NCBI GenBank assembly: GCA_947478465.1
Contig: CANJWH010000001.1
Coordinates: 27,447 to 91,446 of the forward strand
Direction: 5' to 3'
Length of the DNA stretch: 64,000 bases
From: Bacteroidota bacterium
GTDB lineage: Bacteria > Bacteroidota > Bacteroidia > SXHM01
A model generated the notes under the pieces. The model was not told the origin of the DNA. It did not search any database and was given only the letters and a program-made list of their open reading frames with translations. Positions 25,981-44,531 of the stretch are shown here, piece after piece (within the stretch, counting starts at the first letter, position 1; each line of letters opens with the position of its first letter). The translations under genes and the position numbers were made by a program.

Positions 25981-25988
25981 TTTTTTTC

Positions 25989-26006
25989 ACCACTAAGGGC
26001 ACTAAG
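25989..26006. repeat. Dispersed repeat family A copy (ACCACTAAGGGCAC(A/T)AG)
   Basis: The same 17-mer occurs at 27026-27042 and 39315-39331, with inverted copies at 39359-39375 and a degenerate one at 42122-42150. Confidence 0.5.
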
Positions 26007-27013: not shown

Positions 27014-27025
27014 GGTTTATATTTT

Positions 27026-27042
27026 ACCACTAAGGGCACAAG
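27026..27042. repeat. Repeat family A copy
   Basis: ttaccactaagggcacaagaacac, immediately after the lipoprotein stop. Confidence 0.5.
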
Positions 27043-35106: not shown

Positions 35107-35553
35107 TTATTGAGTAACAGTAACCATAGAAGTGGTTATTGTATTACTTTGATTGCCGGCACGGTCTTTTACATAGATGCTGTAGGAAAAAGTCTGTGAA
35201 CTTGAGCCGTCAATAATTGCAGTGTTGGCAAGAGTAACATTCAGATTTCCTTCAATAATAATGCTCGAATTATCAGGTGCTAACTGCGGGATGCGAAATT
35301 TATAAATCACATTGTTTCGACTATCTGCAAGAAAGAAGTTTTCGGCATCGGGATTGTTTTCTCCTAAATCGCCATCGCCATCACGATATTTAATTGTAAA
35401 CACCAAAGAGTCTGTGTATTCGTGAACGTTTTGAGGCGTTACACTTATGAATTCAATTGTAGGGGTTGGTCCTATTTCTTCTGCTTTTTTGCACGAGACA
35501 ATTGCCAGAGAAACAAAAAGCAAGGCGTATATATTTTTCATTTTAATCATCAA
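35107..35553 (-). CDS. Hypothetical lipoprotein
   Basis: Lipobox LAIVSC. Start could be the third Met (MKNIYALLF…). Confidence 0.45.
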   Translation of the reverse strand: MMIKMKNIYALLFVSLAIVSCKKAEEIGPTPTIEFISVTPQNVHEYTDSLVFTIKYRDGDGDLGENNPDAENFFLADSRNNVIYKFRIPQLAPDNSSIIIEGNLNVTLANTAIIDGSSSQTFSYSIYVKDRAGNQSNTITTSMVTVTQ

Positions 35554-35560
35554 AAAGCCT

Positions 35561-36517
35561 TTATGGAATTACATAAAAAGAATAAAATGTTTTGTATTGA
35601 ATAATATTCTCATCTCTAGGAAACTGTGTGTTTTGCTGATGATCTCCATCGTTGGTAAAAAAGCGAAAATAGACTGTTGTGTCGGTTAAAAAATCACCAG
35701 AATTAACAGTGGCTAGATAATAATCTTTATTGTCGTTATGCAGATAAATGCTGGAATATTCATGATAACCCGGTGCAGATGGAGAAAAATTATCGGGCTC
35801 ATAACTCATTATAAATTTATTATACTGCAGCATATTTGCAGCAGTGCTGTCATCCGAAACCTCAATAGCAAGATTAAAAGAGGTGTTGTTTCCGATTATA
35901 AAAGGGTTGTAATAAATGCCATCAATTCTGGTGTTTGAATAAACAGTATCATAAGGAAAGGTGACATCAAACGCAATATAAAAACCAATATTGGGTTCCT
36001 GGTTAGGGTAGGAGGGCAGCGCTCCAAAAATATCTCTTGCCCCGTTATCAATCCATGCAGCAATATTGCTGATGTGATTGCTTTCAAGCTGCACACCAAT
36101 ATTGTCCTGTGGCATGCGATCGTCCTGATTTACAAAACAGCAATTGGTAAGTCTTTCATACAAAACTGATTGTTCTTTGTTAAAAGGAACTACGCGAAAC
36201 TGAAATGTGCTATCGGCATTATTTTTAATTATCGGATGATAAACAAGTGTAGAATAGGAGCTTTGCAGTGTGCGGAAGTCTGGTTCAAAGTGCCCGTCAT
36301 GGCAACCGGGAACTGCACAACGGGGCGAAAAAATATTTCGATGAAGTGCTACAAATGAAGCAGGGTCAACTGTATCTACCGGTGCCGGAGTGGTTGGATA
36401 ATCAATATCATCATAGGGATTGTGAGGCTCCGGGGTGTCTTTATAACAACCAATTAAAGCAACAGCAATCATAAATAGCAAGCAAACAAATGGTAAATTA
36501 TTTTTAATCAATTTCAT
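35561..36517 (-). CDS. Hypothetical lipoprotein with a Cys/His-rich segment (RCAVPGCHDGH)
   Basis: 318 aa. Lipobox ALIGC. The C-x4-CH segment is reminiscent of, but not identical to, haem-binding motifs. Confidence 0.5.
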   Translation of the reverse strand: MKLIKNNLPFVCLLFMIAVALIGCYKDTPEPHNPYDDIDYPTTPAPVDTVDPASFVALHRNIFSPRCAVPGCHDGHFEPDFRTLQSSYSTLVYHPIIKNNADSTFQFRVVPFNKEQSVLYERLTNCCFVNQDDRMPQDNIGVQLESNHISNIAAWIDNGARDIFGALPSYPNQEPNIGFYIAFDVTFPYDTVYSNTRIDGIYYNPFIIGNNTSFNLAIEVSDDSTAANMLQYNKFIMSYEPDNFSPSAPGYHEYSSIYLHNDNKDYYLATVNSGDFLTDTTVYFRFFTNDGDHQQNTQFPRDENIIQYKTFYSFYVIP

Positions 36518-36538
36518 GCCGATTTATTTATTCTTGGT

Positions 36539-37843
36539 TTAAATAAATGCCTGATCAAGTGATGTTCCGGAAAGCATTCCTCCTGGAATATCGTTTTGGA
36601 ATCCCAGCACTTTTGCAATCGTTGGTACCACATCAATGCTCTCGCCTGTTACCGTTGATATAACCTGATTTTGCACCACTTTATCAGGCGGACCAACAAT
36701 AAGACAGAAAATCTGTCTTGAAACCTCATCGCTGTTATGGTCAAGTGCGTATTTACCGTAAGCATCAAGAATGGTGTTGGGCTGTTCATTTCTTCCGTGC
36801 TCGGGAACTGCAATCAGAATGGTGTCGTTTGCCATTCCGGGGGTGGATTGAATTGTTTGCCACAGATGAGCTAATGCATAGTCTGATTTGCGGATGTTGT
36901 TGCAATAGCCCGTGAAGTTTGTGTGGCATACATCAATGTCCTGCATGTTTACCACTGTGAGTTCGGGTTTAAATTGTTTAATAATCTGTTCGGCAAAAAA
37001 CACATTATACATATCGCCATTCATGCTGTTGCCAACTCCCCACGGATTATCATATTGCCCTGCCACAGCTTCATCAAACGAATTGTTGATATAGTTTTCA
37101 ATAAGTATTGCCTCTTCTTCAATATTGGTAATTCCTGCATCGCCCGGAGTATAGTTGATTGAAAAATTATTGTCCATAAACTGGCGAAGGCTTTTTACTT
37201 TATCCAACTGAACTGCTTCAAAGTTTTTGGGATCACCTAATGAATTATATCCTGGAATAGAAATTATAGAACCTGGCTGAATAAAATTGGCTCCAAATTC
37301 AGCACCATAACCTGGATACTGACTGAAATTTAATGCCGGATAAGGACCAAGAGTATTCGCAACCCACCATGCATTTAGCGCACTCATGGATGGGGAATTA
37401 TGTTTACGATAGTATTCAAAAACCGTAGGGTATGTCGGGCGTTGTTTTATATTCAAATCACCCAGCACATATTGTCCGGTAAGAGCTGTAGAATGGCCGC
37501 TGAAGTGGCCTGTTGGACCTTGTGCAAACCGAAACTCTTTGTATAATGTGCCTTGTTGCTGAAGCCTTTGTCCGCTTGGTGTTGGCAGCGCATCCATGCC
37601 ACCAATAATTTGGGGGTTAATGCTTTCGTTTCCGGTAAGCGTAAAAGGCATAAGATTTCCTTCTGCCTTTTGCATTGATTCGAAGTTGCGCACACCACCG
37701 GCAAACAAACAAAGCACAACGTGATTGGCAATACGGCTTCCTGTGGCAGCAAACAATCTTCCTGATGGAAGAATATAGGGGGCTGCAAAGGCTCCTGCTG
37801 TTGCCAGTGCTGCTTTTTTAATAAATCCTCTGCGTTGCATCAT
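36539..37843 (-). CDS. TAT-secreted protein, possibly DUF1501 / sulfatase-like metallohydrolase
   Basis: 434 aa. Twin-arginine signal MMQRRGFIKKAALATAGAFAAP. Size and signal fit DUF1501; no sulfatase CxPxR motif seen. Confidence 0.5.
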   Translation of the reverse strand: MMQRRGFIKKAALATAGAFAAPYILPSGRLFAATGSRIANHVVLCLFAGGVRNFESMQKAEGNLMPFTLTGNESINPQIIGGMDALPTPSGQRLQQQGTLYKEFRFAQGPTGHFSGHSTALTGQYVLGDLNIKQRPTYPTVFEYYRKHNSPSMSALNAWWVANTLGPYPALNFSQYPGYGAEFGANFIQPGSIISIPGYNSLGDPKNFEAVQLDKVKSLRQFMDNNFSINYTPGDAGITNIEEEAILIENYINNSFDEAVAGQYDNPWGVGNSMNGDMYNVFFAEQIIKQFKPELTVVNMQDIDVCHTNFTGYCNNIRKSDYALAHLWQTIQSTPGMANDTILIAVPEHGRNEQPNTILDAYGKYALDHNSDEVSRQIFCLIVGPPDKVVQNQVISTVTGESIDVVPTIAKVLGFQNDIPGGMLSGTSLDQAFI

Positions 37844-37844
37844 G

Positions 37845-38336
37845 CTAATAATATCTGTATTCGTTTGAAGTCATCATTGCAAAATAAATCAACTCCGGAG
37901 TTGTGCTGTTGTCTCCGGCAATTTCGTTTTCAATATGCCACAACTCAAATTCGTTTGGCAAACGATTGAAAAATTTCACGTAACTGTTTTTGATGAACTG
38001 CTGCACATCGGCATTCATTTCTGTTTGTGATGGAATATCAACACCGCCATCGTTAAGGAAGTTTTTAATAATCATTTGCTCAATCAAGCGTTGGTCGCCA
38101 AAAGCCGCGTACGCTGTTTGTAATTCTACCAATTGTGTTTGCGAAATATTTGCTCCAAATAAATCGCTGTAGGCAATAGAAATAAATGTGAATGTTGATT
38201 TTACGTTGGGCTTATTTGCATCAGGTTTTTGAATATCAACATCTGTAACACCGTATATAAAATCGGTGTCTTTTTTACATGATGATAATACCGAAACCAG
38301 CAGCAGTATCCAACAGTATTTATAGTTAATTCTCAT
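37845..38336 (-). CDS. Hypothetical lipoprotein (163 aa)
   Basis: Lipobox VLSSC; no domain recognised. Confidence 0.45.
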   Translation of the reverse strand: MRINYKYCWILLLVSVLSSCKKDTDFIYGVTDVDIQKPDANKPNVKSTFTFISIAYSDLFGANISQTQLVELQTAYAAFGDQRLIEQMIIKNFLNDGGVDIPSQTEMNADVQQFIKNSYVKFFNRLPNEFELWHIENEIAGDNSTTPELIYFAMMTSNEYRYY

Positions 38337-38344
38337 TGTGGTTT

Positions 38345-39220
38345 TTAGTTAATTCCAACGTATTCATCAGTAGTAAGCACCTTTTTCAGCAGGCCTTTAT
38401 AATCACCAGAGTTTTTGTAGTAAGTGCTGTAAAGAGCCGATTCTTCGGAAGTGGGTTGACGGAAAAGATAGGCGTTGTAAACAATTTTTACCTGACCTCC
38501 ATAGTAGTCATCAGAAGCAAAAAAAATGTCCATAAAATCCTGTTTGCTTGTGCCTATTTGAAAGAATAATACTCCGCTTAACCCATCCACAATGTTTTTG
38601 GCTTCTGCAAGTTCAGCATCAGTAGGGTAGCGGGAAAGGAAGTGTTCAAATGTTGATACTACAAAGTTTTCGGTGCCCATATTTAATTCGTCATAAAATG
38701 AATTATTAATCATTGTGCGGTGCATCTGAGCTACTGTAATGTTACCGGCAACAAGGTTGGGGTATACATCTCTCAGCGCTTCAAGTCTTGAAATTTCGTA
38801 ATTAAGCTGATCAACGTATTGAGCATATTCGGGCTGAGTAAGAAGGTTTTGATAAATGCCGATAAAAAAGGTTGTTTGGGCTGTGTCAAAATTTACAAGC
38901 AGATAAGTGTAGTAGTTTTTGTAAAGGTTTTCATAGTACTCGGGCTTGTCAAGAATAGACTGAATAAATGTTTCGCGGCTGGCTTGTGACAATGCACCGG
39001 ATTCAAGCAATGTGGCGCCTTCGGCCTTTTCTGTGTCACTTGGCTTGCGGCCCAAAACGCTTATGTAGGCCTTGTTTACATAGGTTTCAATGACTATGCT
39101 TGACAGAGTGCTGTCGGGTGGTGGAACATTGTTAGGAATTAACACTTCCTCGTGTTTGGTGCATGAAGAAAGTATTGCCAATATTAAAACAAACGGCAAC
39201 CAAAGCGTTTTATTGAGCAT
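38345..39220 (-). CDS. Hypothetical lipoprotein (291 aa)
   Basis: Lipobox ILSSC; no domain recognised. Confidence 0.45.
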   Translation of the reverse strand: MLNKTLWLPFVLILAILSSCTKHEEVLIPNNVPPPDSTLSSIVIETYVNKAYISVLGRKPSDTEKAEGATLLESGALSQASRETFIQSILDKPEYYENLYKNYYTYLLVNFDTAQTTFFIGIYQNLLTQPEYAQYVDQLNYEISRLEALRDVYPNLVAGNITVAQMHRTMINNSFYDELNMGTENFVVSTFEHFLSRYPTDAELAEAKNIVDGLSGVLFFQIGTSKQDFMDIFFASDDYYGGQVKIVYNAYLFRQPTSEESALYSTYYKNSGDYKGLLKKVLTTDEYVGIN

Positions 39221-39314
39221 GTTTAAATTTATTTTACCGTGTAAAAATAAAATAATTTTCTATAAAGAAAACCTTTGGTTTGCTGATTTAAAGAAGGTTT
39301 AATAAAGGAAGTTT

Positions 39315-39375
39315 ACCACTAAGGGCACAAGAACACAAAGAAAATACTTAGCGAAAACCTTGTGCCCTTAGTGGT
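39315..39375. terminator. 17-bp inverted copies of repeat A forming a hairpin downstream of the dipeptidase gene
   Basis: accactaagggcacaag … cttgtgcccttagtggt with a 27-nt loop, followed by aaaaa. Confidence 0.5.
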
Positions 39376-39380
39376 AAAAA

Positions 39381-40911: not shown

Positions 40912-41493
40912 ATGGCAAACGTAATTACCAAAAGCTACAAGAAGGATATTTTTTGCATTGAAGGGCATTGGGAAAAAGACATGCGCAAAACCGACAGCAT
41001 TCAGCCAGCGCTGAAATTGCTGAACCTGAACATGGGCGTAAAATTTTATTATCAGCGCAGCGCAACGTTAGAAGAAATTGCACACGTTAGTTTAGAATAC
41101 AGCAAAAAAAAATACAGTAAATACATCATTTACTACTATGCTTTTCATGGTCTGCCCAACAGCATACAGGTAGGCAATAAACACATTAACTTAGAAGAGC
41201 TTGCCGAAAGATTAGAAGGAAAATTAGAAGGAAAAATAATTCACTTCGGATGCTGTCAAACTTTAGGAATCAACAAACGCAGGCTCACTAATTTTTTAAA
41301 TAAAACCGGAGCGCTTGCTATTTCGGGCTACACCAAAGACATAGATTTTCTGCGAAGCACCACACTTGATATTTTGTATTTCCACACCTGCCAGTTCTGG
41401 CAAGACATCCGCAAAATAGAAAGCGAGATGAATAAACTCTATCGCCAGATGTCAAAAGATTTGGGGTTTAGAATTGTTTACCGCACGCAGTAA
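40912..41493 (+). CDS. Hypothetical 193-aa protein with a caspase/CHAT-like His…Cys dyad context
   Basis: YIIYYYAFHG (His ~79) and IIHFGCCQTLG (Cys ~124), about 45 residues apart after hydrophobic strands. No signal peptide. Confidence 0.45.
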   Translation: MANVITKSYKKDIFCIEGHWEKDMRKTDSIQPALKLLNLNMGVKFYYQRSATLEEIAHVSLEYSKKKYSKYIIYYYAFHGLPNSIQVGNKHINLEELAERLEGKLEGKIIHFGCCQTLGINKRRLTNFLNKTGALAISGYTKDIDFLRSTTLDILYFHTCQFWQDIRKIESEMNKLYRQMSKDLGFRIVYRTQ

Positions 41494-42183: not shown

Positions 42184-42191
42184 TAAATTTG
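42184..42191 (+). promoter_or_regulatory. Candidate -7 box TAAATTTG upstream of the PorZ-like gene
   Basis: TAnnTTTG match 7 nt before the ATG at 42198. Confidence 0.3.
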
Positions 42192-42197
42192 CCGCTC

Positions 42198-44531
42198 ATG
42201 CAGTACAACAAACTCCTTATCACATTGTTTTTTGCACTTATCAATTCTCTTGTGTTTGCACAGGGAGTTGGAGTAGGGCAATGGCGCGATCACTTACCCT
42301 ACACCAATGCAAAAACCCTTACCGAGGCTGGCGACCGCATTTACTGCGCATCAGAAGAGGGTTTGTTTTATTACAGCAAATCAGAAACAACAGTTGATAA
42401 GCTGAGCAAAATCACCGGCCTCAGCGACATCGGTTTCAGCACCATTAATTATGACAGTCTTACCAACACGCTTGTAATTGCCTACTCCAACGCCAACATT
42501 GATTTGATACAAGACAATCGCATCATCAATATTCCCGACATCAAACGAAAAATTATTCCGGGAAATAAAATCATCAACAAAATATTTTTCAAAGACAATT
42601 ACGCATATCTGGCCTGTGGTTTTGGAATAGTAGTATTAGATTTAATCAAGAAAGAAATAAAAGACACCTACTACATCGGACCCAATGGTGACAATATAAA
42701 CGTAACAGACATTACCTGCGATGGAAACGAGTTTTATGCATCAACAACAGGAGGAATTTATCATGCAGATGTAAATGCATCAAACCTTGCCAATTACAAT
42801 TTCTGGTCAAAATATAACAACCTGCCATCCACAACAGAAAGCATATTTTACAGCGCTGTTGAATATCATGCAGGAAAAGTTTTTGCCAGTCTTTATAGTC
42901 CGCTTACAAGAGATACTATTTATGTATTTGACGGAAACGCCTGGGCATATTTTGACACCACACTTTTTCAGGAAGTGCGCAGCATTACATCGCGTCACAA
43001 CAAAATGGCAGTTTGTGGTTACGGATTTATGTTAGTGTATAACGAGGATGATGTTGTAGTTCAAAATATCTATCAATATTTTGGTATGGCCAATCAAAAC
43101 GCAAATCCTAATGAAGGCTTTGCAGCACAAAATGGTGATTACTGGATAGCAGATGGCGGGCAGGGTCTGGTAAAAAATTTCAACACATTTGACTACCTGA
43201 ATGTGCATCCAAATGGTCCGCGTTTTGCAACTGCCTTTGACATATCTGTTGAAAACAGCAACCTATGGGTAGCATCGGGCGGGGTTAGTGTTTCCTGGAG
43301 TCCGTTGTTTAAATCAGAAGGCGTTGCTTCATACATCAACAACACCTGGAACACTATTTATCCAAAAGACGATAACGGAAACAATGTGGTTGATATAATC
43401 CGCGTTGCTGTTGATCCCAACAACCCTTCGCATGTTTTTGCGGGCTCGTGGCTTAATGGTGTTGTTGAAATAAATAACAACGCACAAACGGCTATGCACG
43501 ATACAACCGGAAACTCTTCTTTGCTTCCTCTTACGGGCATCGACTGGATAAGAATTGGCGGACTTGATTTTGATCTGGACGGAAATCTATGGATAGGAAA
43601 TTCAAATGTTACCAAGCCAATTTCAGTTTTTAAAACAGACGGCAACTGGCAAAACTTTAATCCCGGAAATGCATTTAACCAAAATCTTGTTGGCGATTTA
43701 ATCATCGACTCATATAACCAGAAATGGCTTATGCTTCCCTATGGAAACGGCTTATTGGTTTTCAACGACAACTACACCATAGGAACAACAACAGATGATA
43801 AGTACAAACGCCTGAACACTTCGCTCAACAATGGTGGTTTACCAAGTAATTATATCTACAGTATTGCAGAAGATTTAGATGGAGAGGTATGGGTAGGAAC
43901 CGATAAAGGAATTGCGGTTTTTTATTCTCCGGGTGAAATTTTTGCCGGTAACGGAAACTTTGATGCACAACAAATTTTAATTGAGCAGGATGGTTATGCG
44001 CAATACCTTTTTGAAACAGAAATTGTAAGTGCTATAGCGGTAGATGGTGGCAACCGCAAATGGATAGGAACACAAAATGCTGGCGTATTTTTAATGTCGC
44101 CAGATGGTACTCAGGAGTTATTACATTTCACAGAAGAAAACAGCCCTTTGTTTGCAAACAACATTCTCAGCATCGCTATTGATGATGTTACAGGCGAAGT
44201 ATTTATTGGCACACAAAAAGGAATTATTTCTTACAAAGGAACAGCAACCGAAGGCGGTGAAATTTTTAACGATGTGTATGCTTATCCAAATCCTGTGCAT
44301 CACGATTATGATGGACCAATTGCAATTAAAGGCCTTGTAAAAGATGCCGATGTAAAAATCACCGACATCAGCGGAAAACTAATGTATGCAACTAAAGCAC
44401 AAGGCGGACAAGCCGTGTGGAACGGAAAAAGTTTTGATGGCGAAAAAGCTGCAACAGGTGTTTATCTGGTGTTTGCTTCTAATGAAGATGGTTCGCAAAC
44501 ACACGTAACAAAAATCCTTATCGTAAACTGA
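42198..44531 (+). CDS. PorZ-like T9SS protein: two beta-propeller regions plus T9SS C-terminal sorting domain
   Basis: Signal peptide. Propeller-like repeats. C-terminal …VYAYPNPVHHDYDGPIAIKGLVKDADVKITDISGKLMYA…GVYLVFASNEDGSQTHVTKILIVN matches the T9SS CTD. The ~780 aa length fits PorZ. Confidence 0.6.
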   Translation: MQYNKLLITLFFALINSLVFAQGVGVGQWRDHLPYTNAKTLTEAGDRIYCASEEGLFYYSKSETTVDKLSKITGLSDIGFSTINYDSLTNTLVIAYSNANIDLIQDNRIINIPDIKRKIIPGNKIINKIFFKDNYAYLACGFGIVVLDLIKKEIKDTYYIGPNGDNINVTDITCDGNEFYASTTGGIYHADVNASNLANYNFWSKYNNLPSTTESIFYSAVEYHAGKVFASLYSPLTRDTIYVFDGNAWAYFDTTLFQEVRSITSRHNKMAVCGYGFMLVYNEDDVVVQNIYQYFGMANQNANPNEGFAAQNGDYWIADGGQGLVKNFNTFDYLNVHPNGPRFATAFDISVENSNLWVASGGVSVSWSPLFKSEGVASYINNTWNTIYPKDDNGNNVVDIIRVAVDPNNPSHVFAGSWLNGVVEINNNAQTAMHDTTGNSSLLPLTGIDWIRIGGLDFDLDGNLWIGNSNVTKPISVFKTDGNWQNFNPGNAFNQNLVGDLIIDSYNQKWLMLPYGNGLLVFNDNYTIGTTTDDKYKRLNTSLNNGGLPSNYIYSIAEDLDGEVWVGTDKGIAVFYSPGEIFAGNGNFDAQQILIEQDGYAQYLFETEIVSAIAVDGGNRKWIGTQNAGVFLMSPDGTQELLHFTEENSPLFANNILSIAIDDVTGEVFIGTQKGIISYKGTATEGGEIFNDVYAYPNPVHHDYDGPIAIKGLVKDADVKITDISGKLMYATKAQGGQAVWNGKSFDGEKAATGVYLVFASNEDGSQTHVTKILIVN

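Follow-up and report, generated by a model that had tools for sequence, protein, structure and literature searches.

Modules in which a PSCyt1-PSCyt2(DUF1549)-PSD1(DUF1553) protein accompanies a DUF1501 protein are found in Planctomycetota, Verrucomicrobiota, some Bacteroidota and Proteobacteria, and their function was reported as unknown (Kamneva et al. 2012, PMC3542564; He et al. 2017, PMC5615132). One of the architectures described in PMC3542564 starts with PSCyt1 and Big_2. We found no later characterisation of these modules in the literature. Here we analysed a stretch of 64,000 nucleotides from a Bacteroidota bacterium (assembly GCA_947478465.1, contig CANJWH010000001.1, positions 27,447 to 91,446 of the forward strand), hereafter the window, which holds five consecutive small genes, g1 to g5 (Table 1). 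A first-pass annotation of this DNA had suggested that they may be an uncharacterised cell-surface system, a compact Bacteroidota version of the PSCyt/DUF1501 pairs. None of the five products is covered by a family model or has been characterised functionally, and we found no paper that describes the cluster or its families. The five genes form a conserved operon. We see about even chances that it encodes one set of proteins of the cell envelope, most likely a periplasmic complex tethered to the membrane. This set would be a split and miniature counterpart of the PSCyt/DUF1501 modules.

Both systems combine an enzyme of the alkaline phosphatase (AP) superfamily exported by the twin-arginine translocation (Tat) pathway with a PSCyt1-type domain and with helical units of the R-x-P-T-x-x-E type. 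In both, the genes are tightly packed and co-directional, the enzyme gene is preceded by the helical one and beta-sandwich binding domains stand beside the cytochrome domain. While the PSCyt module has one multidomain protein (815-1125 aa in five references) with a CXXCH motif, the cluster has separate small lipoproteins, and g4 carries CX4CH together with a vicinal CC pair. The cluster is without the DUF1549 and DUF1553 cores, and its enzyme comes from another AP-fold family that fails the DUF1501 model PF07394. It is mostly single in a genome, whereas bacteria of the Planctomycetes-Verrucomicrobia-Chlamydiae (PVC) group have large paralogous families of PSCyt modules, and, unlike the PSCyt/DUF1501 modules, it has so far been seen only in uncultured Bacteroidota. 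Real PSCyt1/DUF1549/DUF1553-then-DUF1501 pairs, two of them from Bacteroidota plasmids, show the canonical layout. On one plasmid, pHALHY03 of Haliscomenobacter hydrossis (L101:1-610), a gene of the SUMF1/EgtB/PvdO family adjoins the cytochrome c, DUF1501 and DUF1553 cluster, a possible hint at an oxidative maturation step in canonical modules.

Two further groups resemble parts of the cluster. The DUF1800+DUF1501 pairs of Proteobacteria (Ensifer pC, Azospirillum pAB510f) likewise encode a helical protein upstream and then a Tat-exported AP-fold enzyme of ~400-430 aa, and their DUF1501 proteins share with g3 a 'GG' or 'RG' after the first strand and an 'E-x-G-R-x4-N' motif; at the 'GG'/'RG' position nucleotide pyrophosphatase/phosphodiesterase (NPP) carries an Asp ligand. 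Profile alignment with hhalign gave P 6e-4 between g3 and these DUF1501 proteins. In contrast to the cluster, however, the pairs encode neither lipoproteins nor a cytochrome domain, and g1 and g2 aligned with DUF1800 only at P 0.07-0.4. The PafA and NPP-type enzymes (PF01663) are 12-17% identical to g3, with a TM-score of about 0.45 owing to insertions in g3, which differs from them by an AGG in place of the first-strand Asp, by Tat export and by its dedicated partner lipoproteins.

A five-gene operon conserved among uncultured Bacteroidota

The open reading frame (ORF) list of the window contains all five co-directional genes at the coordinates and lengths given in the first-pass annotation. 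The g5 start is a TTG for 148 aa or, as chosen by gene callers, an ATG one codon on for 147 aa. From g1 to g5 the intergenic gaps measure 8, 1, 21 and 7 bp, and the locus is identical in two deposited metagenome-assembled genomes (MAGs), GCA_947479515.1 and GCA_947471795.1.

With each species represented by one genome, at least 540 genomes proved to encode a relative of g3, and the loci of the best 80 were compared. All 80 are MAGs of uncultured Bacteroidota (Bacteroidia, Flavobacteriales, Chitinophagales, Sphingobacteriales, Cytophagales), and they derive from lakes, groundwater, wastewater and sea water. The order g1-g2-g3-g4-g5 and the strand are kept in 79 of the 80 species-level genomes, that is in every locus with enough flank, at a g3 identity between genomes of only 56-70%. 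Median intergenic gaps across the related loci are 1-9 bp. The flanks vary: an M20 peptidase gene is the upstream neighbour in roughly 40% of loci, and a gene for a LEA_2-like lipoprotein follows g5 in 15 of 76. Since order and strand are the same, the gaps short and the flanks different, the five genes are a self-contained unit and not a chance adjacency. We conclude that g1-g5 constitute a conserved five-gene operon; the joint conservation of the neighbours on which the first-pass annotation had made its proposal depend is thus borne out. Neither flanking gene qualified as a further member: the LEA_2-like gene was rejected for its low frequency, the M20 peptidase for its frequency and for the strong hairpin that separates it from g1.

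Among the five products, g3 is the best conserved, with a median identity of 62% in distant loci against 43-52% for the other four. In a large protein collection we counted 1684 homologues of g3, 886 of g4 and 244 of g1, almost all of them unnamed. Searching 1.8 billion representatives with a g1 profile, we obtained 284 representative clusters at E<1e-30, and the 150 matches listed were orthologues without exception. No plasmid match was obtained by tblastn with g1 and g4. One MAG, nzgw126, contains two copies of the cluster (L029, JAHEYK010000039.1, and L054, JAHEYK010000154.1) whose g3 proteins are 81% identical; the two may be a true duplication or come from two strains that were binned as one.

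The predicted proteins and their relatives

The first-pass annotation had pointed to cytochrome-like PSCyt proteins, and a link to them lies in g4, where its sequence RCAVPGCHDGH occupies residues 66-76. After signal peptides were trimmed, residues 45-172 of g4 aligned by hhalign with the PSCyt1 domains of five Pfam-verified proteins at a probability of 96% and P 3.8e-9 over 102 columns, and with whole PSCyt1-DUF1549-DUF1553 proteins at P 3.1e-6, while reversed controls gave 0.63-0.68. The reference proteins themselves carry PSCyt1 at E 1e-14 to 1e-18. In the alignment, CX4CH is placed opposite CXXCH and is two residues longer, 'RMPQD' corresponds to 'MPp', and 'WIxxGA' to 'WIeqGA'; the NCCF segment has been inserted in g4 and has no PSCyt1 counterpart. 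By profile comparison, the N-terminal domain of g4 is hence shown to be homologous to PSCyt1. Neither PF07635 nor any other Pfam model matched g4 or 32 family members, even at E<=10, and this may be because the PF07635 model has only 59 positions and is centred on CXXCH. All 886 homologues of g4 are unnamed and none carries a Pfam domain.

The CX4CH motif was present in 83 of 85 g4 orthologues, the two exceptions being short ORFs (217 and 250 aa against ~318), and CXXCH was found in none of the 85. Invariant positions are C67-x4-C72-H73-D-G, F77-E-P, C126-C127-F, D133-R-M135-P-Q-D138, W155-I156 and G159-A160. Weak but recurrent matches in the family (n=32) were to the dihaem cytochrome c model TIGR03806 (8 members) and to cytochrome c551 (2 members). 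We predict a haem site formed by C67-x4-C72-H73, with M135 as the distal ligand.

The two putative lipoproteins g1 and g2 are built from helical units. The motif 'L-x-R-x-P-T/S-x-x-E' occurs three times in g1 (residues 47-64, 186-203 and 243-260), and Pfam DUF4214 (PF13946) matches g1 with 29.4 bits against a cutoff of 23.2 and 28 of 33 family members. In g2 the DUF4214 match stays below threshold at 16 bits, with sub-threshold matches in 8 of 17 orthologues (best E 0.001). By hhalign with signal peptides trimmed, g2 is related to g1 (P 4e-5). Untrimmed, g1, g2, g4 and g5 aligned with one another at probabilities of 76-96%, but homology among the four was rejected: the signal was lost on trimming except for g1-g2, and it was due to shared lipoprotein signal peptides.

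Similarity of g1 to the canonical modules is restricted to such a unit. In the g1 family (n=33), sub-threshold Pfam matches were found to PBS-linker (8 members), PSD1/DUF1553 (8, best E 1.5e-5) and PSCyt2/DUF1549 (7, best E 3.8e-4); the listed scores, which cover the window g1 (17.5 bits to PSD1) and ten members, lie below the gathering scores of 29.8 (PF07583) and 28.5 (PF07587). With hhalign, the first unit of g1 matched the first ~70 residues of PSCyt2/DUF1549 (P 7.4e-6) and the last ~70 residues of PSD1/DUF1553 (P 5e-4), compared to 0.08-0.12 in reversed controls. The DUF1549 and DUF1553 cores do not align with g1. The only Cys of g1 is that of the lipobox, and g1 therefore cannot carry the C-x-x-C-H-x-H-K-x-D-P of the DUF1549/DUF1553 core. 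By its Pfam scores, and with a match over a single unit, g1 is not a member of either family, both of which the first-pass annotation had listed for checking together with DUF1800. For g2, hhalign revealed no similarity to PSCyt2, PSD1 or DUF1800. DUF1800 (PF08811) was likewise rejected for both proteins (P 0.07 for g1 and 0.42 for g2, no Pfam match).

In g5 we observed a conserved acidic loop, D-G-D-G-D-L-G-E-N, in which D58, G61, D62 and G64 are invariant, and an invariant D-R-x-G-N-x-S-N. The Pfam matches of its family are weak and Ig-like only (DUF5126 in 6 of 19 members, also Big_3_2 and Big_15), so that g5 is probably an immunoglobulin (Ig)-like protein. With signal peptides trimmed, it showed no similarity to the other four.

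The 434-aa protein g3 starts with MMQRRGFIKK, which includes the twin-arginine sequence RRGFIKK noticed in the first-pass annotation. The Tat signal model TIGR01409 scored 16.8 bits against a cutoff of 16.7, and Pfam TAT_signal matched 10 of 30 family members. The signal ends in a cleavage site of the AxA type (A-F-A, then A) and there is no lipobox, and thus four of the five products, not all as had been claimed, are candidates for lipoproteins. A structural comparison agreed with the suggested sulfatase-fold similarity: g3 has the sulfatase/alkaline-phosphatase fold with an alpha/beta core, at 10-19% identity and a TM-score of about 0.45 to solved AP-fold enzymes. Searches of the PDB with g1, g3, g4 and g5 (phmmer and profile) returned nothing significant. 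Within the g3 family (n=30), Pfam matches were to Phosphodiest (17 members), Metalloenzyme (5), Sulfatase (5) and DUF1501 (3); the Phosphodiest alignment covers residues 88-354 of g3, which includes T111 and excludes the first strand.

Invariant in these 30 members are A48-G49-G50-x-R52, T111-G-H113, H117, T122-G123, D304, H307, E348-H-G-R-N352, N356 and D368-H369. T111 sits just ahead of helix 113-122. Taken together, the active-site residues look intact. Of 88 orthologues, 86 have 'PEHGRN', and E348-H-G-R-N aligns to 'SDHGEQ' of the phosphonate monoester hydrolase (PMH) 2vqr and to 'EFGRT' of DUF1501. Thr as nucleophile is typical of phosphoryl transfer in the AP superfamily, and formylglycine is typical of sulfatases. 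The formylglycine motif C/S-x-P-x-R was found neither in g3 nor in any of the 30 aligned family members, and with Thr at the predicted nucleophile position g3 would be an esterase or transferase of the phosphoryl type that has a two-metal site. Its predicted metal sites are N53, T111, E348 and H349 on the one hand and D304, H307 and H369 on the other, and its substrate class would be a phosphoryl-type ester and not that of the formylglycine sulfatases.

The first-pass annotation had called g3 DUF1501-like in size. It is so in size, export route and some motifs, but not in family membership. PF07394, with a gathering score of 27 bits, did not match g3 at E<=1 and matched 3 of 30 family members (best E 0.01), whereas genuine DUF1501 proteins scored 103-501 bits in the identical scan. 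For comparison, we used two reference sets, namely seven DUF1800-then-DUF1501 pairs from proteobacterial plasmids and six PVC-type DUF1501 genes adjoining PSCyt1/DUF1549/DUF1553 on plasmids of Singulisphaera, Chondrinema, Haliscomenobacter and Catenovulum. These genes were fetched with sequence probes, which served for retrieval only, and representatives were verified with Pfam. The g3 family aligned with the DUF1501 alignments at P 2e-4 to 3e-3 (reversed controls 0.08-0.17), and g3 aligned with single DUF1501 sequences at P 7e-4 to 0.7. Under permissive settings the alignment is collinear from end to end and passes through the Tat signal, 'GG' after strand 1, 'H-F-x8-G', 'D..H' and 'E-x-G-R-x4-N...D-H'. 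Seven verified DUF1501 members have the invariant motifs R-G-x-x-D, R-S-H-F-x2-Q, G-W-D-x-H-x2-Q and E-F-G-R-x2-R-x-N-x3-G-T-D-H-G. The collinear counterparts in g3 are altered (A-G-G-V-R-N, T-G-H-F-x2-H, D-x-x-H and E-H-G-R-N-x3-N...D-H, with N53 in the place of D54 of DUF1501), and similar motifs also occur in relatives outside DUF1501.

The closest relatives that we found outside the g3 family are two uncharacterised proteins of the cyanobacterium Acaryochloris marina (WP_012167436.1, annotated as 'sulfatase-like hydrolase/transferase') and of Fulvitalea axinellae, a member of the Cytophagales (WP_338395484.1, 'alkaline phosphatase family protein'). The former aligned with g3 over the full length at a probability of 99% and P 2.3e-19, the latter at P 4.5e-8. 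Like g3, the Acaryochloris protein has a Tat signal, 'GGGVR', 'T-x-H...LTG-x-Y', 'PT-x-FEY-x-RK', 'P-D/E-x-GR' (there P-D-C-G-R) and the same C-terminus. On plasmid pREB3 of A. marina (L097:3314-4492) the relative is followed by a gene for a polytopic membrane protein, which was examined as a relative of g1, g2, g4 or g5 and rejected as unrelated; on pFA3 of F. axinellae (L096:3494-4609) it lies directly downstream of SusC/SusD. Both loci differ from the cluster in having none of g1, g2, g4 and g5. Such relatives in other gene settings indicate that the AP-fold family is wider than the five-gene cluster. As judged from its sequence, g3 belongs to an unnamed family of the AP superfamily and is not a DUF1501 member.

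Table 1. Location of the five genes, of domains and motifs in their products and of the upstream inverted repeat in the window
Feature	Coordinates	Strand	Description
g1	38345..39220	-	291 aa, putative lipoprotein (Cys20) with three DUF4214-type helical units
g2	37845..38336	-	163 aa, putative lipoprotein (Cys20), small and helical, DUF4214-like units related to g1
g3	36539..37843	-	434 aa, predicted Tat-exported enzyme of the alkaline phosphatase superfamily, unnamed family
g4	35561..36517	-	318 aa, putative lipoprotein (Cys24), PSCyt1-like cytochrome c-type domain followed by an Ig-like beta-sandwich
g5	35107..35553	-	147/148 aa, putative lipoprotein (Cys21), probably an Ig-like beta-sandwich
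g4, PSCyt1-type cytochrome c-like domain	36038..36370	-	residues ~50-160, from hhalign to PSCyt1
g4, CX4CH motif C-A-V-P-G-C-H	36299..36319	-	residues 67-73, in place of the CXXCH haem-attachment motif
g4, Ig-like or CBM-like (carbohydrate-binding module) beta-sandwich	35564..35995	-	residues ~175-318
g3, twin-arginine motif RRGFIKK	37814..37834	-	residues 4-10; R4 and R5 invariant in 30 family members
g3, invariant E348-H349-G350-R351-N352	36788..36802	-	stands where NPP, sulfatases and PMH have their metal-binding D-H-G motif
Inverted repeat	39314..39376	-	18 bp, perfect, 27-nt loop; after the stop codon of the M20 peptidase gene upstream, ahead of g1

Cell location of the products and surroundings of the cluster

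Lipobox-type ends, each preceded by a hydrophobic stretch, were read in g1 (ILSSC20), g2 (VLSSC20), g4 (LIGC24) and g5 (IVSC21), and the lipobox Cys is invariant or nearly so in each family alignment. These four proteins are therefore regarded as putative lipoproteins. The lipobox Cys is followed by Lys and acidic residues, in g1 as C-T-K-H-E-E, in g2 as C-K-K-D-T-D, in g4 as C-Y-K-D-T-P-E and in g5 as C-K-K-A-E-E, and this pattern is conserved in each family (39161-39220, 38277-38336, 36446-36517 and 35491-35553, respectively). A C-terminal signal of the type IX secretion system (T9SS) was found on none of the five. The Tat signal of g3, together with its lack of a lipobox and of a T9SS C-terminal domain, favours the periplasm, as does the fact that haem attachment occurs there. 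The products of the cluster are thus probably periplasmic rather than exposed on the cell surface.

Around the cluster lie housekeeping genes (MnmG/GidA, a methyltransferase, an S46 peptidase, the M20 peptidase, PorZ and RecO). Upstream of the M20 gene are a DUF6642 protein (40912-41493) and a PorZ-type T9SS component with Por_Secre_tail (42189-44531), and the latter indicates that the organism has a T9SS. The inverted repeat ahead of g1 folds as RNA into a hairpin of -39.3 kcal/mol (z -10), which is probably a terminator or insulator; g1-g5 would then be their own transcription unit. Scans for sigma-70 promoters and terminators did no better than on shuffled sequence, and an Rfam scan of the g1 leader gave no family near the gathering score, hence no riboswitch or known RNA.

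The 18-nt hairpin arm TACCACTAAGGGCACAAG has an exact copy at 27025-27042 and a copy with 3 mismatches at 25988-26005. The copies each sit a few bases past the end of an ORF, and 4 matches compare with 0.02 expected; the arm looks like a repeated intergenic element of the host genome. The gene that directly follows g5 in 15 of 76 loci, for example at L004:10784-11239, L001:10732-11202 and L002:10739-11215, is a sixth co-directional gene of ~150-158 aa and has no counterpart in the window. The copies in L001 and L004 match Pfam LEA_2 (WHy-type), while for that in L002 no Pfam match is recorded.

Possible functions of the cluster and their likelihood

We propose the following picture for a membrane-tethered periplasmic complex. 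The enzyme g3 would fold in the cytoplasm and leave through the Tat system, perhaps already loaded with its metals, and would cleave or transfer a phosphoryl-type ester group (a phosphomono- or diester or a phosphonate ester). The helical DUF4214-repeat proteins g1 and g2 would probably tether or scaffold it. A haem-based redox or sensing function could be supplied by g4, whose Ig-like domain would bind a partner or substrate, and g5 may add a binding surface, its acidic DGDGD loop being a possible calcium site. We infer complex formation, periplasmic location, haem binding, catalytic residues, substrate class and any redox role of g4.

Several observations weigh against this picture. In a Cytophagales MAG (RDZD01000010.1, L088:5866-7302), the sole exception among the 80 loci, a g3 orthologue of 56% identity stands alone, with g1, g2, g4 and g5 not nearby. 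The Bacteroidota maturation system is a putative route for attaching haem to CX4CH. The AlphaFold2 model of g4 has a mean confidence (predicted local distance difference test) of 73, with more than 90 in the C-terminal domain and low values in the N-terminal domain; the fold search with g4 gave generic Ig and CBM matches only, a consequence of this low confidence in the cytochrome-like domain. In g3 the first-strand Asp of NPP, PafA and sulfatases is missing and the invariant A48-G49-G50 stands in its place, so that its metal site may be atypical. The Lys/acidic pattern behind the lipobox Cys of g1, g2, g4 and g5 resembles the surface-export signal reported for lipoproteins of Bacteroidota, and surface exposure is therefore possible. 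As for the kinship to the canonical modules, the likeness of g1 to DUF1549 and DUF1553 comes down to one helical unit that is also common to DUF4214 and phycobilisome linkers, and g3 is far closer to AP-fold proteins with other neighbours than to DUF1501. The resemblance to the PVC modules may thus stem from convergent assembly and not from common descent.

In a reading based on strict descent, the cluster would be a true but highly diverged orthologue of the PVC module that carries out the same reaction, with g3 derived from DUF1501 and with g4, g1 and g2 arisen by fission of a PSCyt1-(Ig)-DUF1549-DUF1553 protein. The homology of g4 to PSCyt1 speaks for this, as does its PSCyt1-plus-Ig layout, which mirrors the PSCyt1/Big_2 start in PMC3542564. 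The match of g1 to the first DUF1549 unit and the last DUF1553 unit and the collinear permissive alignment of g3 with DUF1501 (P 2e-4 against 0.08-0.17 in reversed controls) point in the same direction. However, PF07394 does not match g3, which is at least 10 orders of magnitude closer to AP-fold proteins outside DUF1501 that also have 'GGGVR' and 'D-x-G-R'. Moreover, g1 has no Cys beyond the lipobox and aligns confidently over only one unit of ~70 residues, and g2 has no similarity to PSCyt2 or PSD1. We hold strict orthology to be improbable. An ordinary operon for scavenging nutrients appears possible but rather unlikely to us; here g3 would be a PafA/NPP-like phosphatase or phosphodiesterase, the lipoproteins accessory, the g4 domain a haem-free structural or disulfide remnant, and the likeness to PSCyt functionally meaningless. 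The distance of g3 from solved AP-fold enzymes (only 10-19% identity, TM-score about 0.45) and the missing first-strand Asp ligand do not fit this well. That CX4CH, M135 and the CC pair are invariant (83 of 85 orthologues) speaks for a functional cofactor or redox site over a remnant, and four dedicated, co-conserved lipoproteins are not needed by known scavenging phosphatases.

A bolder version of the redox role assigns to the cytochrome, with its unprecedented CX4CH and vicinal-disulfide site, an exchange of electrons with the AP-fold metalloenzyme, so that the cluster would be a minimal and self-contained redox-coupled esterase machine for an oxidative or reductive reaction, for example on reduced-phosphorus or organosulfur compounds. 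We regard this as decidedly improbable. It is very unlikely that the cluster serves sulfated glycans, with g3 removing sulfate esters and g4 and g5 binding carbohydrate, since none of the 30 g3 family members has C/S-x-P-x-R, position 111 is Thr, and neither the cluster nor its flanks within the window hold genes for a glycoside hydrolase, SusC/SusD or formylglycine generation. That five unrelated envelope proteins came to lie side by side by chance could draw on the solitary g3 of the Cytophagales MAG and on the lack of direct evidence of interaction, but this is scarcely conceivable and effectively refuted by synteny, given that order and strand are kept in 79 of 80 genomes with gaps of 1-9 bp and differing flanks. 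A membrane-tethered periplasmic complex is the reading that we keep, at the even chances stated at the outset.

The hosts found so far are all uncultured. Since g3 is not a DUF1501 protein, any transfer of function to the PVC modules would be by analogy. Within these limits, the analysis defines four protein families without a Pfam or NCBIfam model and a variant of PSCyt1 with an invariant CX4CH. If the redox-coupled reading were true, it would reveal the chemistry of the PSCyt/DUF1501 modules that fill the genomes of Planctomycetes and Verrucomicrobia, where they are among the largest gene families. The cluster shows that the combination of parts known from these modules also exists as five small separate proteins, namely in 79 of the 80 best-matching genomes of Bacteroidota, among at least 540 with a g3 relative. 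Small single-domain proteins are much easier to express, crystallise and model in a complex than multidomain proteins of 1000 residues, and the cluster therefore offers a tractable entry point.

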